DNA of 32,000 nt. It comes from Candidatus Thorarchaeota archaeon (GTDB taxonomy: Archaea; Asgardarchaeota; Thorarchaeia; Thorarchaeales; Thorarchaeaceae). The DNA lies in NCBI GenBank assembly GCA_003345555.1, contig PRDJ01000036.1:1-32000 (forward strand), written 5' to 3'. Positions 5,337 through 11,509 of the stretch are shown here, piece by piece; position 1 is the first letter of the stretch, and every line of letters begins with the position of its first letter. The notes under the pieces were generated by a model that was given only the letters and a program-made list of their open reading frames with translations, did not search any database and was not told the origin of the DNA. The position numbers and the translations under genes are program-made.

Positions 5337-6533
5337 TCATTCTTGGAGGTACTTGCGAATAGTGCGGATTCGAGAAAGAACCACGTACATCAAAGGTACC
5401 TTCACTGAAGTCTGTTTCACGGTCTGAGCGCTCGTTGGTATGATACCCTCTTCCTCTAACGTCAAGGGCCACACGCCAGTCTCTCTGACCTCTTGTCTTG
5501 GTTTACTTATCAGTTCTCTTGACGTCAGACGGTCACGAAGCTTCACGAGCAGCACCCCGAGAATGAGAAGGAAGGGCAACGGCAGCGCGAGAGGCCCTAC
5601 CATGAAGTTCGACCAGAACAAGTAGAGATAGATATACGGCGAATTTGCAAGGAGTTCGCCGATTACTCCGATTACCAGCGTCCGATACGCTGATCCGATT
5701 CCCCGGTAGTATAGTATCAGCTTTCTAGCGAAGACAATTCGGATGGAGGACAGCATGAGCATCAGAGCGAAGGACGTGATAGGATAAGTGTAGTAGATTT
5801 GAGAGTAGTATAGGTATGCCGGTTCCAATGCGTACTTGAACTGGTACAATGATACCATCCCGATCGTACTAACGAAGTTTGACGTCGACGAATACCCATC
5901 GGAGTAGGCAAGGAGGGTAGTCGGTGCTATGAATACCACAACTCCAAGCACCAAACCAATAGTCTTTGCCACCCTTGAACTCGCAATCCTTGTCGGTCGG
6001 GCAAAGGGCTTCTGCGTTGGGGACTGCTCCTTCGTAGCATGCAAGAGGAAAGATGATTCACGTAAGAATAACGGAATGAGTATCAGGACGACAAGCGGCA
6101 ACGTCGGATAAGCGCTGGCTATGTCGAGGTATGTGCTATAATTCAGTGAAATAGGATCCACCTGAAAGGCCCAAAGATTCGGGAAAAACTCGGCGAATAG
6201 CAGGGCTGCAATCACAGACCCAAGAGTCAGCCGCCTGATTGACCTGAACTGACTTGCTCCACGGATCTTGGCAAAGAAAAAGATTCCCGGCAACGATTGG
6301 GCTACTGCTTGAAGAACTAGCCCTATTGGAGGAAAAACGAAAAGCAAAGGGGCGGGGCTGGGCGTAACGGCGAGATATTGTTCATGGCCTGCGACAAACA
6401 GGACACAGCAGTAATCAATGTCATTACTGCGTAATTGGACCATTATAGGTGATACCAACATGGCAAGAAGAAGGACGGCAATCTCAAGTGATGTCTTCAG
6501 ATTGGTGCGCCTTTTAGATTGCTCCGTTCCCAC
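5337..6533 (-). CDS. Polytopic membrane protein of unknown function
   Basis: 398-aa ORF (GTG start) with many hydrophobic segments and a TATA-like element about 25 nt upstream. No family recognised. Confidence 0.75.
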   Translation of the reverse strand: MGTEQSKRRTNLKTSLEIAVLLLAMLVSPIMVQLRSNDIDYCCVLFVAGHEQYLAVTPSPAPLLFVFPPIGLVLQAVAQSLPGIFFFAKIRGASQFRSIRRLTLGSVIAALLFAEFFPNLWAFQVDPISLNYSTYLDIASAYPTLPLVVLILIPLFLRESSFLLHATKEQSPTQKPFARPTRIASSRVAKTIGLVLGVVVFIAPTTLLAYSDGYSSTSNFVSTIGMVSLYQFKYALEPAYLYYSQIYYTYPITSFALMLMLSSIRIVFARKLILYYRGIGSAYRTLVIGVIGELLANSPYIYLYLFWSNFMVGPLALPLPFLLILGVLLVKLRDRLTSRELISKPRQEVRETGVWPLTLEEEGIIPTSAQTVKQTSVKVPLMYVVLSRIRTIRKYLQE

Positions 6534-6558
6534 AGCCTACTTTGTAGACTAGTATGCT

Positions 6559-6566
6559 AATAAAAG
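6559..6566 (-). promoter_or_regulatory. Putative TATA box for the 5337..6533 gene
   Basis: Minus strand reads gaaaaggccg-CTTTTATT about 25 nt before the GTG start, which fits a leaderless archaeal promoter. Confidence 0.4.
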
Positions 6567-6577
6567 CGGCCTTTTCA

Positions 6578-6609
6578 TTTCCTGGGCCGCAGTAAGGCGG
6601 CCGAGGAAA
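6578..6609 (-). terminator. GC-rich hairpin at the 3' end of the hdr/mvh operon
   Basis: Minus strand tttcct-c-ggccgc-(cttact)-gcggcc-c-aggaaa, a 6+6 bp stem just downstream of the SECIS. Terminator or 3'-stabilising role is inferred. Confidence 0.45.
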
Positions 6610-6617
6610 AGTGACCA

Positions 6618-6686
6618 GCGACCCTTGCGGGGTTGTCGAGCGCGGTACTGTTCTTTGCGACCACGCCTTCATTCTTCGCAGGTCAC
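6618..6686 (-). promoter_or_regulatory. Eukaryote-type SECIS element (selenocysteine insertion sequence)
   Basis: Minus strand: helix I gugaccugcg/cgca-ag-ggucgc; core AUGA (6672-6669) opposite GA (6637-6636); helix II AGGCGUGGU(C)GC/GUACCGCGCUC; apical loop AAAGAACA starting 12 nt after AUGA. It lies about 80 nt downstream of an in-frame UGA. Confidence 0.85.
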
Positions 6687-6821
6687 TATTTCCTTCTTGG
6701 CTATCTCGCGCCCCTCTTCATCAACAATGACGATATGAGCGGCGCAGGATAGTCAGCAGTCATAGCAGCGTACTACCATCTCAAGGAGATTGAGTACGCC
6801 TTCGGGTATCTCGTCTGTCAT
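6669..6821 (-). CDS. vhuU: Selenocysteine-containing [NiFe(Se)]-hydrogenase C-terminal subunit VhuU (50 aa; UGA at 6755-6753 read as Sec)
   Basis: Manual translation: MTDEIPEGVLNLLEMVVRCYDC-U-LSCAAHIVIVDEEGREIAKKEIVTCEE*. The UGA sits at the first ligand of the L2 motif (normally DPCxxCxxH) that is missing from the upstream large subunit. A GAGG SD lies at 6833-6830 and a SECIS follows. Confidence 0.9.
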
Positions 6822-6834
6822 CTTGATTTCCTCT

Positions 6835-8151
6835 CTAGGTCTTCACTAGTGGTTCAGGGAGTCTTAGTTTCTTGAGTCCATCCTGCTCAAAGATGAGTCT
6901 CGCGGCATCCATCAACGACTTCTCGATGCCGCCAACATTGTGGTTCGTGGCGACTATGATGTTTGCCTTAGTGACAATGCCCTCATCATCGCATTCGTAG
7001 TTGTGCAGACAGGTGCCGCGCGGCGCTTCGACGACCCCAACTCCTTCGCCAGCCCTCGGTGTGACATCCGAAAGCTTCACATCGGTGCACACGATGTCCG
7101 GGTCTTCGAGCAGCTTCTTGATCGACTCAGCAGCCTGCACCAACTCCACAATTCTGGCATAGTGGTAGGCGAATGTGTGGTGAGAGGGTCTTCCTACCAG
7201 GTCACGCATTTCCTTCAGTGCGGCCTGAGCGAGCGGCGTCGCCATCTTCTCAGCGATATTGCAGCGTGCCAACGTGTTAGCACGCCAAATACCGTCAGGG
7301 TAACCCGCAGGCTTGTAGTAGATATGGGTGGCATAGGAGTGGTCCGGCACGTGCTCACCCCAATACTTCGTGTAATCCTTCGGCTCGAAGTCGGCAACCA
7401 TGGTACCATTGGGATCCATCACATGAATGGTTCCGTCGTAGATATCCAATACGCCCTTGTTGCTCAGGCCCACGTAGTAAGTTGGAGTCACAGCCACTTT
7501 CGTAATCACGTCGATGTAGGCCTTCACCACAGTCTTCGCAAGATCAACCGTCTTCTGGACGTTCTCCAGAAGCTGGGGGACAGCCTTCAGCCACTTGTCC
7601 CGCTCCTCTTCGGTCAGCGAGTTCAACATGCCCCCCGGAATTGCAGTAACAGGATGAATCGCCTTGGCGCCCACATCTCTGCAAAGCTCCTGCCCAAACT
7701 CCATTATCTTGATAGCTTGCACGGCTACATCGGGCATATACTTCAGGACTGCCGCCACATTCCTCACAGACGGATCGGCAAAGGGTCCGAAAACGAAATC
7801 AGGAGCAGCAAGTGCGTAGAAATGAATGGCATGAGACGATAGCTGCTTCGATTCGATAAGCAGTCTTCTTAGCTTGATTGCAGCTGGAGGCGGCTTGACT
7901 CCCCATGCTGCTTCAACAGCTTTGACGGATGCCAAGTGGTGAGGCTCCGGGCAGATGCCACAGATTCTCGGTGCTATCCTAGGGACTTCCTCCATCGGAC
8001 GCCCGACTAAGAACCTCTCGAAGAAGCGAGTGCTCCCAATATTGAACTGAACATCTTTCACCTTGTTTCCTGCGCCCAGAGTAATAGTCAGTGCGCCGTG
8101 TCCTTCGAGGCGTGTGACTGGCTCAATGCGAATCGTCTTATCGTTAGTCAT
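6835..8151 (-). CDS. mvhA: F420-non-reducing [NiFe]-hydrogenase large subunit (MvhA/VhuA), lacking the C-terminal L2 motif
   Basis: Contains IEPVTRLEGHG, the L1 motif RICGIC, GVGVVEAPRGT and NIIVATNHN. It stops at 438 aa with no DPCxxC. Confidence 0.93.
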   Translation of the reverse strand: MTNDKTIRIEPVTRLEGHGALTITLGAGNKVKDVQFNIGSTRFFERFLVGRPMEEVPRIAPRICGICPEPHHLASVKAVEAAWGVKPPPAAIKLRRLLIESKQLSSHAIHFYALAAPDFVFGPFADPSVRNVAAVLKYMPDVAVQAIKIMEFGQELCRDVGAKAIHPVTAIPGGMLNSLTEEERDKWLKAVPQLLENVQKTVDLAKTVVKAYIDVITKVAVTPTYYVGLSNKGVLDIYDGTIHVMDPNGTMVADFEPKDYTKYWGEHVPDHSYATHIYYKPAGYPDGIWRANTLARCNIAEKMATPLAQAALKEMRDLVGRPSHHTFAYHYARIVELVQAAESIKKLLEDPDIVCTDVKLSDVTPRAGEGVGVVEAPRGTCLHNYECDDEGIVTKANIIVATNHNVGGIEKSLMDAARLIFEQDGLKKLRLPEPLVKT

Positions 8152-9081: not shown

Positions 9082-9318
9082 CTATGATGCCTCCTTGAGT
9101 GAGTAAACCAGTTCCTTGTCTCGTTCACCAGTAACTTCCACATTGCCCCACTTCAGCATTCCAACCAGATTCCAGACAATCAGATCCTTGGCTAGACCTG
9201 TCTTCTCAGATATGATGCTGACTGTGGTGGCACCGGCCTTCATAGCCTCCTCGATAGCCTGACGCTGCTTTCGAACGTCTCCTCGCTTCTGACTGAAGAA
9301 CTTCACAAACGTGCTCAT
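9082..9318 (-). CDS. Small winged helix-turn-helix-like protein inside the mvh operon
   Basis: Pattern AIEEAMKAGATTVSIISEKTGLAKDLIVWNLVGMLKWGNVEV resembles a wHTH. The start at 9318 overlaps the mvhD stop (ATGA) with SD GGAGTGA; an alternative start is at 9324. Confidence 0.75.
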   Translation of the reverse strand: MSTFVKFFSQKRGDVRKQRQAIEEAMKAGATTVSIISEKTGLAKDLIVWNLVGMLKWGNVEVTGERDKELVYSLKEAS

Positions 9319-9758
9319 TTCCATTCACTCCTTATGGGACCGATCTTTCTAACTTGCTCAGTGAGCTCCTTGACGCCATCAGCGAAGATCTGTGCTTCAG
9401 AAGCACTTGCCCACTGTAATCGAACCCTTCGAGGGTCGACTCCAGATTGCTCGATAACTTTCTCTAAGAGCGCCCATCTAGCTCTGAGCTTTAGATTACC
9501 TGAGGTGTAGTGACAATCACCAGGGTGACATCCGGACACAAGCACGCCGTCTGCTCCCATCTCTAAGGCGGCAAGAATAAATTCCGGATCAATCCGTCCG
9601 GTGCAATTGACCCTCAAGATCCTCGCGTTAGGCGGATACTGAATCCTGCTAGTGCCAGCTAAGTCTGCTCCGGCATAAGAGCACCAGTTACAGCAATACG
9701 CGAGAATTCTTGGTTCCCAGTGCTCGGGGACCACCGTCTCATTTTGGGATTGTGACAT
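9315..9758 (-). CDS. mvhD: Hydrogenase iron-sulfur subunit MvhD ([2Fe-2S])
   Basis: Contains YCCNWCSYAGADLAG, RVNCTGR, GCHPGDCHY and WASASE. The ATG at 9758 overlaps the upstream stop (TAATG), so the ORF-track start at 9794 is probably too early. Confidence 0.95.
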   Translation of the reverse strand: MSQSQNETVVPEHWEPRILAYCCNWCSYAGADLAGTSRIQYPPNARILRVNCTGRIDPEFILAALEMGADGVLVSGCHPGDCHYTSGNLKLRARWALLEKVIEQSGVDPRRVRLQWASASEAQIFADGVKELTEQVRKIGPIRSEWK

Positions 9759-11509
9759 TAGGCAGTCCCTCCTTCCACTTGGGCTGGCGTACAAAGGAAT
9801 GCCTCAACCATTGCCATAATCTGATCATCTGTGCTGTGATACATGATGATTGCATTTGAGGGACAAGCTGCCGCACAGGTACCACATCCATGGCACTTAG
9901 CCTCTGTGACGAGTGCCACTGCCGGTTCTCTTGATTTGTCCATTGAGATTGCGCCGTACGGACATGCAGTCACGCATGTGCGGCAGGATGAACAGAGTTC
10001 GGGAATAACGTGAGAGACGGTGGACTCAATCTCTACCTGCCCCCTTGCCATCAGACTGACGGCCTTTGCTGCCGCGCCACTTGCGTCAACAACAGACTCG
10101 GACGCGTTCTTGGCGGCCTGAGCTGCTCCTGCAATCATGACTCCTGCAGTGTGCGTTGTAAGAGGCGCCAGCTTGATGTGCTCCGGGTTGAAGAACCCGT
10201 CTGCACTTCTGGTAAGACCAAACATCTTCGCTGTCTCTGCAATGTCCCCTGGAGGAACCATGGCAGAAGCCAACACCAACAGATCCGGTTCGAACTCAAG
10301 GTAGTCACCTGATAGCACATCATACCATCGCATTGTGATGCCATTAGCAGTAACCTGCACATCGGGTTTGCTATCCTTAGGGAACCGACTGTATATCACG
10401 AACTTCGACCTAGCCAACCGATATAGCTCCTCATGGCCGCGGCCATAGGTCCTGATGTCCTGATATAGGATCATAACCTCTCCAACTTTGTCCTTCAAGT
10501 CTGAAGCGGCTTTGGCTACTGCGGAACAACAGTGTCTGGAGCAATGCTCATGTCCCTGTTTTCCAGCTTCGCGTGACCCTACACACCCGATGAAAGCAAG
10601 CTTGTTCACTTTCTTGCCGTCACTAGGCCGCAAGAGGTCAGCCCTCGGCGGCAGTTCCTGAAGCTCTGCCAACGTGATGATATCAGGCGACTCGCCGTAT
10701 CCGTAGTAGCCGAACGGCCTGAAAGGTTCAAACCCCGTCGCCATAATAACCGCCCCGACATCCACAGACTTCGTACGGCCCGTTTCGTGATTCTTAATCT
10801 TCGCTGTGAAGTTGCCCACGTATCCTCCGAACTCCACAACTTCGCTGTTCTGCATGACCTTAATCGACCTGTGCTTCTCCACGTCTTTGACAAGGGGTCC
10901 AATAATCTGGGCCCCTGACTCGTCAGCGGGAAACAAATGAGTCCACTTCCTCACATGCCCTCCAAGCTCAGGAAGCCGTTCTACAAGCACGACTTCGAAC
11001 CCTCTCTCGGCTATGTCGAGAGAAGCTCTGAGCCCTGCTATTCCGCCGCCAACCACAAGCGTCCTTGGAGTAACATTCACAGACTTAATGGGGAGACTTT
11101 GAAGCTGTGCGGCACGGGCCACGGACATTCTCACCAAGTCCATCGCCTTCTCAGTTGCTTCTTTCGGCTGCCGCATGTGGCACCAAGAGACTTGCTCCCT
11201 CAGGTTGACTTGGTCGAAAAGATACCTATTCAGGCCGGACTCTTCGACAACACGGCGGAAGGTTGGCTCGTGCATCCGCGGACTGCAGCTCGCTACGACC
11301 ACACGATTAAGGTTGAGTTCCTTGATCTTGTCTCTTATCAGCTGTTGACCCGCATCAGCACACATGAACATGTAGTCCGTAGAAAACACCACATAGGGCA
11401 ATGACATTGCCATCTTTGCAACCGCAGCAACATCAACAACGCCTGCTATGTTGTGCCCGCAATGACAAACGAATACGCCGATTCTTGGTTCTACCTTGTC
11501 ACCCATCAT
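9758..11509 (-). CDS. hdrA: HdrA-family subunit: N-terminal Fe-S domain, FAD domain and C-terminal ferredoxin, without the inserted ferredoxin
   Basis: Contains RIGVFVCHCG, ASCSPRMH, GGGIAG, CVGSR...CSRHCC and two C-terminal ferredoxin motifs (CSSCRTCVTACP, CHGCGTCAAACP). Confidence 0.92.
   Translation of the reverse strand: MMGDKVEPRIGVFVCHCGHNIAGVVDVAAVAKMAMSLPYVVFSTDYMFMCADAGQQLIRDKIKELNLNRVVVASCSPRMHEPTFRRVVEESGLNRYLFDQVNLREQVSWCHMRQPKEATEKAMDLVRMSVARAAQLQSLPIKSVNVTPRTLVVGGGIAGLRASLDIAERGFEVVLVERLPELGGHVRKWTHLFPADESGAQIIGPLVKDVEKHRSIKVMQNSEVVEFGGYVGNFTAKIKNHETGRTKSVDVGAVIMATGFEPFRPFGYYGYGESPDIITLAELQELPPRADLLRPSDGKKVNKLAFIGCVGSREAGKQGHEHCSRHCCSAVAKAASDLKDKVGEVMILYQDIRTYGRGHEELYRLARSKFVIYSRFPKDSKPDVQVTANGITMRWYDVLSGDYLEFEPDLLVLASAMVPPGDIAETAKMFGLTRSADGFFNPEHIKLAPLTTHTAGVMIAGAAQAAKNASESVVDASGAAAKAVSLMARGQVEIESTVSHVIPELCSSCRTCVTACPYGAISMDKSREPAVALVTEAKCHGCGTCAAACPSNAIIMYHSTDDQIMAMVEAFLCTPAQVEGGTA

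Follow-up and report, generated by a model that had tools for sequence, protein, structure and literature searches.

The short hydrogenase gene vhuU in a 32,000-nucleotide stretch of Thorarchaeota DNA (the window) very probably ends in an Asgard-type, eukaryote-like SECIS which directs Sec insertion at a UGA 84 nt upstream and which holds the stop codon of the gene inside its core. We established the anatomy, conservation and covariation of this element and its association with Sec. The overlap of stop codon and SECIS is real but already known. The SECIS of Lokiarchaeota VhuU.1 was reported to overlap the end of the coding sequence, its AUGA doubling as the UGA stop (Mariotti et al. 2016, PMC4989117, Discussion), and the UGA stops of Lokiarchaeia selenoprotein genes were reported often to overlap the AUGA motif (Huang et al. 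2024, PMC11227280). The belief, expressed in a preliminary description of this DNA, that the overlap was undescribed is therefore mistaken, since these papers published it for Asgard archaea in 2016 and 2024. The locus is a clean, well-conserved Thorarchaeota example of the published arrangement and thus mainly confirms existing work, to which a phylum-wide count, natural controls (Cys-type genes and UAA lineages) and two structural extras are added here. Asgard SECIS elements are a proposed link between archaeal and eukaryotic Sec decoding.

The gene, its Sec codon and its upstream neighbour are located as follows.

6669..6821, minus strand: vhuU coding sequence, 50 codons plus stop, translated with TGA read as U
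6753..6755, minus strand: Sec codon UGA, codon 23, at the Ni-ligand position D-C-U-x-x-C-x-x-H
6835-8151, minus strand: vhuA, large hydrogenase subunit (Pfam NiFeSe_Hases)

vhuU lies 13 nt downstream of vhuA and starts with ATG at 6821-6819 on the minus strand. Its product is a small polypeptide with Sec that forms the C-terminal piece of the [NiFeSe] hydrogenase large subunit and reads ..RCYDCULSCAAH, followed by a 21-residue tail ending ..VTCEE. The preliminary description had proposed that this one short gene has two UGAs, and this was confirmed: Sec is encoded at 6755-6753 and the stop TGA lies at 6671-6669 (minus strand), the first bases of the two being separated by 84 nt. The base preceding the stop is A, so the stop supplies the last three bases of an AUGA at 6672-6669. 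Orthologs of vhuU were present in 250 of the 301 genomes of the phylum that were sampled, and in all Sec-type orthologs aligned an in-frame TGA occupied the position of codon 23. The vhuD/mvhD gene of the operon (9315-9794, minus strand) is of the Cys type, without an in-frame TGA, and all five FlpD-family matches of the MAG were likewise free of in-frame stops. The SECIS is situated at the 3' end of the operon and is followed by a pyrimidine/U-rich tract.

For the structural analysis, 24 distinct orthologous vhuU 3' ends from the window's family were aligned (alignment A1), and a covariance model (R1) was obtained from the 24-sequence family alignment. The parts of the element, all on the minus strand, are given below with the evidence for each.

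6604..6694, minus strand: complete SECIS, a three-way junction (MFE fold, RNAalifold consensus, pair counts, R1 match)
6676..6694, minus strand: helix I, 5' strand, within the codons K-E-I-V-T-C-E (MFE fold and pair counts)
6604..6621, minus strand: helix I, 3' strand, in the 3' UTR (MFE fold and pair counts)
6669..6672, minus strand: AUGA core, its UGA (6671-6669) being the vhuU stop; invariant in 24 of 24 family orthologs
6660..6667, minus strand: helix II, 5' strand; compensatory changes in 7 of 8 pairs in the family and in 8 of 8 across the phylum
6639..6646, minus strand: helix II, 3' strand (MFE fold, RNAalifold, pair counts)
6647..6659, minus strand: apical loop, 13 nt, with AAA at 6656-6654; columns A52 and A53 invariant in A1
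6636..6637, minus strand: 3' GA, core partner of the GA in AUGA; GAC invariant in A1
6621..6633, minus strand: mini-hairpin (helix III), CCC/GGG stem and GCAA-type loop (RNAalifold; 96.7-96.9% of cells pair)

The region 6600-6700 (minus strand) folded with an MFE of -40.2 kcal/mol (z = -3.85), and none of 200 shuffled sequences was as stable. In this fold the 5' internal loop ends in AUGA, helix I pairs GUGACC (6686-6681) with GGUCAC (6616-6611) and is extended outwards by GGAAA/UUUCC, and helix II consists of 8 Watson-Crick or GU pairs with an A.C at its base, the AAA starting 12 nt after the AUGA. The mini-hairpin, which follows the 3' GA and precedes helix I's 3' strand, adds a third arm and makes the element a three-way junction. 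With UGA opposite GA and a third hairpin on the 3' strand, its sequence is compatible with a kink-turn or k-junction.

This anatomy agrees with the preliminary description in that the stop UGA of vhuU doubles as the UGA of the AUGA core and that the 5' strand of helix I lies within the coding sequence, whose last codons are V-T-C-E-E by fold and translation; the covariation of helix II that had been named there as a check was also found. Three of its statements required adjustment. The extent 6686-6618 lies within the element but leaves out the 3' strand of helix I, the span by folding being 6694..6604. The "12-nt helix II arm" is correct as the distance from AUGA to AAA, but the helix itself has 8 pairs plus the A.C and is not a 12-bp helix. 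The eukaryotic SECIS geometry holds as far as AUGA, AAA and GA are present, but the third hairpin makes the element a three-way junction, and the Rfam SECIS families gave no match at the gathering threshold, nor at E <= 10 on 6450-6850. Standard SECIS tools were reported to fail on these elements (Mariotti 2016, PMC4989117).

Within the family, all 24 3' ends finished in NNA-UGA, and in each the UGA stood in the AUGA register. The final sense codon was GGA, GAA, GCA or GUA, so that the amino acid varied and the third base was always A, while the two Gly codons preceding it were GGC or GGU and were paired within helix I. Helices I, II and III were all recovered by RNAalifold on A1. When the full structure was applied to A1, 90.3% of cells could pair, compared with 25-47% when the partners were slid by 1-3 columns, and 15 of the 27 pairs showed compensatory change; the observed values were reached by 0 of 500 shuffles. 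Two of the covarying pairs, 27:96 and 28:95, link coding positions to 3'-UTR positions, which shows RNA-level selection inside the reading frame.

The preliminary description had also supposed that the tail, being cut off during maturation, might be free to encode RNA structure. Processing of the VhuU C-terminus is indeed documented in M. voltae (Sorgenfrei 1993, cited in PMC2933860). The peptide encoded by the tail is nevertheless conserved across Asgard families in sequence (..VVDEEG.EI..K.L..G.G) and in length, and is similar to the C-terminal extension found in Cys-type MvhA.

To extend the comparison to the phylum, 301 genomes were sampled and 60 further Sec-type vhuU ends were aligned to R1 together with the family set. 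The survey covered six Asgard families with 83 distinct 3' ends of Sec-type vhuU, in which the stop codon was compared with the aligned core; the loci are related, and the counts overstate their independence.

f1 (Thorarchaeota, the window's family), 42 distinct ends: stop is the core UGA in 42
f9 (low-GC, Loki-like), 30 ends: stop is the core UGA in 29, 2 of which are UUGA
f13, 3 distinct ends: stop is the core UGA in 3
f19, 6 distinct ends: stop is the core UGA in 6, the core being U/C-UGA
f7, 1 distinct end: stop is the core UGA in 0; UAA stop, core 22 nt downstream
f24, 1 distinct end: stop is the core UGA in 0; UAA stop, core 23 nt downstream

The stop was thus the core UGA in 80 of the 83 ends, and the expectation that it would always be UGA in the AUGA register was borne out in these (42 of 42 in the window's family) but not in three ends with UAA. 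Among open frames of the MAG with at least 300 codons, 45% end in TGA and A precedes 27% of those, so A-UGA is expected at ~12% of genes; the stop-in-core pattern is far from this background. The core motif was AUGA in 74 and YUGA in 9 of the 83 ends. The distance from the Sec codon to the core was 84 nt in 73 ends, 96 nt in 8 and 106 or 107 nt in 2, and was never below 84 or above 107 nt; the 96-nt spacing belongs to one clade with a four-codon (12-nt) insert. In the phylum-wide alignment 91.4% of cells paired against 35-47% when slid, and compensatory change was seen in 26 of 27 pairs, although this alignment was fitted to R1 and leans somewhat towards the structure.

In the three exceptional loci (L023, L073 and L024) the stop is UAA, the core lies 22, 23 or 45 nt downstream of it and Sec is kept. 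Since these lineages have a displaced SECIS, the overlap of stop and core is not obligatory. In L024 (G032:C49, family f9) a premature UAA occurs 39 nt after the Sec codon and the core lies 45 nt beyond the stop, while the SECIS is still 84 nt from the Sec codon and is identical to that of a normal neighbour with a full tail. Because of this identity the UAA looks like a recent nonsense change; it is either that or an assembly error, and the locus suggests that most of the vhuU tail is dispensable. A second, partial vhuU tail with SECIS was noticed about 1 kb downstream of the real one in two relatives (L019:3773-3873, plus strand; L009:1-101, minus strand). An ORF of the same nucleotidyltransferase-like family lies between the copies in both. 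These partial copies, which are absent from the window, have the appearance of an insertion in which the 3' end of vhuU was duplicated.

The same survey bears on whether the overlap is itself regulatory. In line with a suggestion of the preliminary description, termination on the core UGA might melt the SECIS and so couple or meter Sec recoding, for example to one event per refolding cycle; any ribosome completing the frame must, by the geometry of the fold, unwind helix I and the core, the arrangement is kept in all 42 ends of the family and in 80 of the 83 overall, and the A before UGA is retained across four different last codons. We consider this role unlikely, however, since the three UAA loci, with the core 22, 23 or 45 nt downstream, keep Sec, only 4 of 10 Sec-type vhuD genes stop within the core, and selection on the SECIS core together with the conserved tail length fully accounts for the conservation.

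The specificity of the element was examined in the whole MAG (2.28 Mb, 51% GC, 93% complete) using R1, which matched the window at 6592-6707 with 104.3 bits. Only two strong sites were found in the MAG, both behind a Sec-type vhuU. The second one (61.8 bits; contig C24:18572-20124, L043) follows a second vhuA/vhuU pair, whose VhuA is 62% identical and whose vhuU likewise has Sec, the 84-nt spacing and GAA-UGA in an AUGA core; the third-best match reached 11 bits (E = 9). The natural controls were three Cys-type vhuU-like paralogs from three families, with TGT at the Sec position. At E <= 1, R1 matched none of the three, no AUGA/helix II/GA fold was present in any of them, and their stops were UUGA, UAA and UAA.

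A further selenoprotein gene of the MAG, selD (contig C77:65691-66800, L110), has an in-frame TGA at the Sec position and ends CCA-UGA, this UGA opening a type-II-like SECIS (L110:2519-2620) that lies 990 nt from the Sec codon. The selenoprotein genes found in the MAG were the two copies of vhuU and selD only, and as both vhuU and selD end in the core, three of three stop on a core UGA. When the MAG was searched with a simple motif, AUGA followed by a stem of 7 bp or more, a loop with AAA, and GA or AA, 17 matches at 14 distinct sites were obtained; only those at vhuU and selD follow plausible selenoprotein genes, and the motif alone is therefore unspecific.

These controls also bear on the reading that the structure has nothing to do with Sec and serves instead as a terminator, as an mRNA-stability structure or, by way of a kink-turn, as the binding site for some unrelated function. 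The missing Rfam match and the place at the operon 3' end ahead of a pyrimidine/U-rich tract would suit it, but the element was found only behind Sec-type genes and not behind the Cys-type paralogs, the stems covary around unchanging AUGA, AAA and GA positions, and the same design stands behind selD and vhuD, which together make such a function scarcely credible. A scan for consensus terminators and promoters found nothing. The AUG within the AUGA also begins a frame of 52 codons (6514-6672, minus strand), but this is most likely no gene, because orthologs carry indels whose lengths are not multiples of three immediately behind the stop.

Of the Sec machinery, the MAG carries the Sec-type selD, and two further components were looked for. 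Aragorn found no tRNA-Sec in the whole MAG, where 15-17 tRNAs were detected at all, and no SepSecS (PF05889) was detected in the 93%-complete assembly. SepSecS was present in all three congeners, and for this reason its absence and that of tRNA-Sec are ascribed to incompleteness; the assembly is probably missing both loci. Two family genomes without a vhuA match were also without a strong SepSecS match.

The two structural extras are the third hairpin of the SECIS and a second hairpin at the Sec codon. The third hairpin was present in all six vhuU families sampled, in selD of the MAG and in 10 of 10 Sec-type vhuD 3' ends (L118-L127) of Loki-like genomes. The other hairpin is located as follows.

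6698..6755, minus strand: hairpin starting at the Sec codon, in an SRE-like position (dG -31.4 kcal/mol, z -3.26)

It is placed between the Sec UGA and the SECIS. In an alignment of 33 Thorarchaeota sequences (A3), 91.2% of its cells paired against 35-52% when slid, and four pairs were compensatory, one of them combining an Ala/Gly codon change with a synonymous Gly-codon change. The clade with 96-nt spacing re-forms the hairpin using its inserted codons. It was missing in the three Cys-type paralogs, and was weak in the low-GC family f9 and differently placed in f19.

It could be argued that this hairpin is the functional signal, of a bacterial-SECIS or SRE-like kind, and that the 3' element is accessory: it is strong (dG -31.4, z -3.3), kept in Thorarchaeota with some compensatory change, rebuilt in the clade with the 12-nt insert and missing from Cys-type paralogs. 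Its register and strength vary across the phylum, however (weak in f9, shifted in f19), whereas the 3' element is kept at every Sec-type locus, and the selD SECIS sits 990 nt from its Sec codon. The EFsec of archaea and eukaryotes is not known to possess the SelB domain with which in-frame SECIS hairpins are bound in bacteria. We therefore regard this division of roles as very improbable and retain the 3' element as the signal.

Both hairpins are leads rather than results. It is conceivable, though doubtful, that the Asgard Sec signal is more elaborate than a two-helix element and comprises a k-junction-like core (vhuU, selD and vhuD) together with a hairpin at the Sec UGA (Thorarchaeota vhuU). 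If so, both hairpins may be determinants for an archaeal SECIS-binding factor, and they could guide the search for the missing archaeal SECIS-binding protein. Neither hairpin is mentioned in the running text of the papers examined.

A mechanism for the preferred reading, an Asgard-type SECIS with the stop inside its core, can be proposed as follows. The core UGA and the GA may pair as tandem G.A within a kink-turn, and this would bring the Sec-specific elongation machinery to the UGA located 84 nt upstream. Since helix I starts 61 nt after the Sec codon, a ribosome decoding Sec would not yet cover it. The Sec codon is 28 codons from the gene end and the SECIS is 84-107 nt off, so the SECIS overlaps the last ~8 sense codons and the frame ends on the UGA of the AUGA core. 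Structural constraints and a minimal-distance rule were said to preclude recoding of SECIS-adjacent stops (Mariotti 2016, PMC4989117). When the core UGA enters the A site, helix I and the core would already have been unwound by the ribosome, and the UGA would terminate safely because no SECIS remains to recode it; it would also be nearer than any plausible minimal SECIS distance. The UAA lineages fit this termination argument, as the stop outside the core is not UGA.

Among known systems, the element resembles the eukaryotic type I SECIS (RF00031) in AUGA...AAR...GA, in the 12 nt from AUGA to AAA and in acting distantly on an upstream UGA. It differs in giving no match to the model, in a shorter helix II and in the three-way junction, and the two coaxial helices with a simple internal loop in the 3' UTR that characterize RF00031 were not found here: the coding sequence contains the 5' strand and the core, whereas the eukaryotic element lies wholly in the 3' UTR. 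We know of no SBP2 in Asgard archaea.

As with the bacterial SECIS and the eukaryotic SRE, the ribosome reads through and melts part of the signal, and the hairpin at 6755-6698 sits at the position of these elements. The AUGA/GA element, in contrast, lies 84 nt downstream rather than adjoining the Sec codon, and it has no evident SelB-type binding loop as in the bacterial SECIS. Like the SECIS of Methanococcales and Methanopyrus, it belongs to this gene family and is placed in the 3' UTR or close to it, and methanogen vhuD elements also carry AUGA...GAC (Mariotti 2016, PMC4989117); by inspection of the MFE and consensus folds, however, it is without the GAA_A bulge and the three consecutive S-S (G/C) pairs that those elements have below a small loop.

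The closest likenesses are with the Asgard elements. The lokiSECIS of VhuU.1 (PMC4989117) belongs to the same gene and shares the AUGA before a stem of ~9 bp, the A-rich loop and a purine-A after the stem. The window element differs from it in being GC-rich, in having GA rather than AA after the stem, in a loop of 13 nt containing GCAAA where the lokiSECIS has 11 nt with AAAAA, and in a much longer helix I that reaches ~8 codons into the coding sequence. Huang 2024 (PMC11227280) catalogues Type I eSECIS-like elements of Thorarchaeia frhA/vhuU that have an AUGA_GA core and G[U/G]AAA in the loop, and the window element resembles these in the core, the loop type, the upper stem of 7-15 bp and the lower-stem [U/C]GG_C[C/U][A/G] pairs; where the text of that paper has a 3' internal loop, a conserved third hairpin stands here. 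All sequence and structure features of Asgard eSECIS-like and lokiSECIS elements that were examined were present in the window element: AUGA directly 5' of the upper stem (6672-6669), GA directly 3' of it where GA or AA is typical (6637-6636), a covarying upper stem in the 7-15 bp range (8 bp plus A.C), unpaired adenines starting the apical loop (AAA, 6656-6654), and a position behind a Sec-type gene, with three of three Cys homologs lacking the element.
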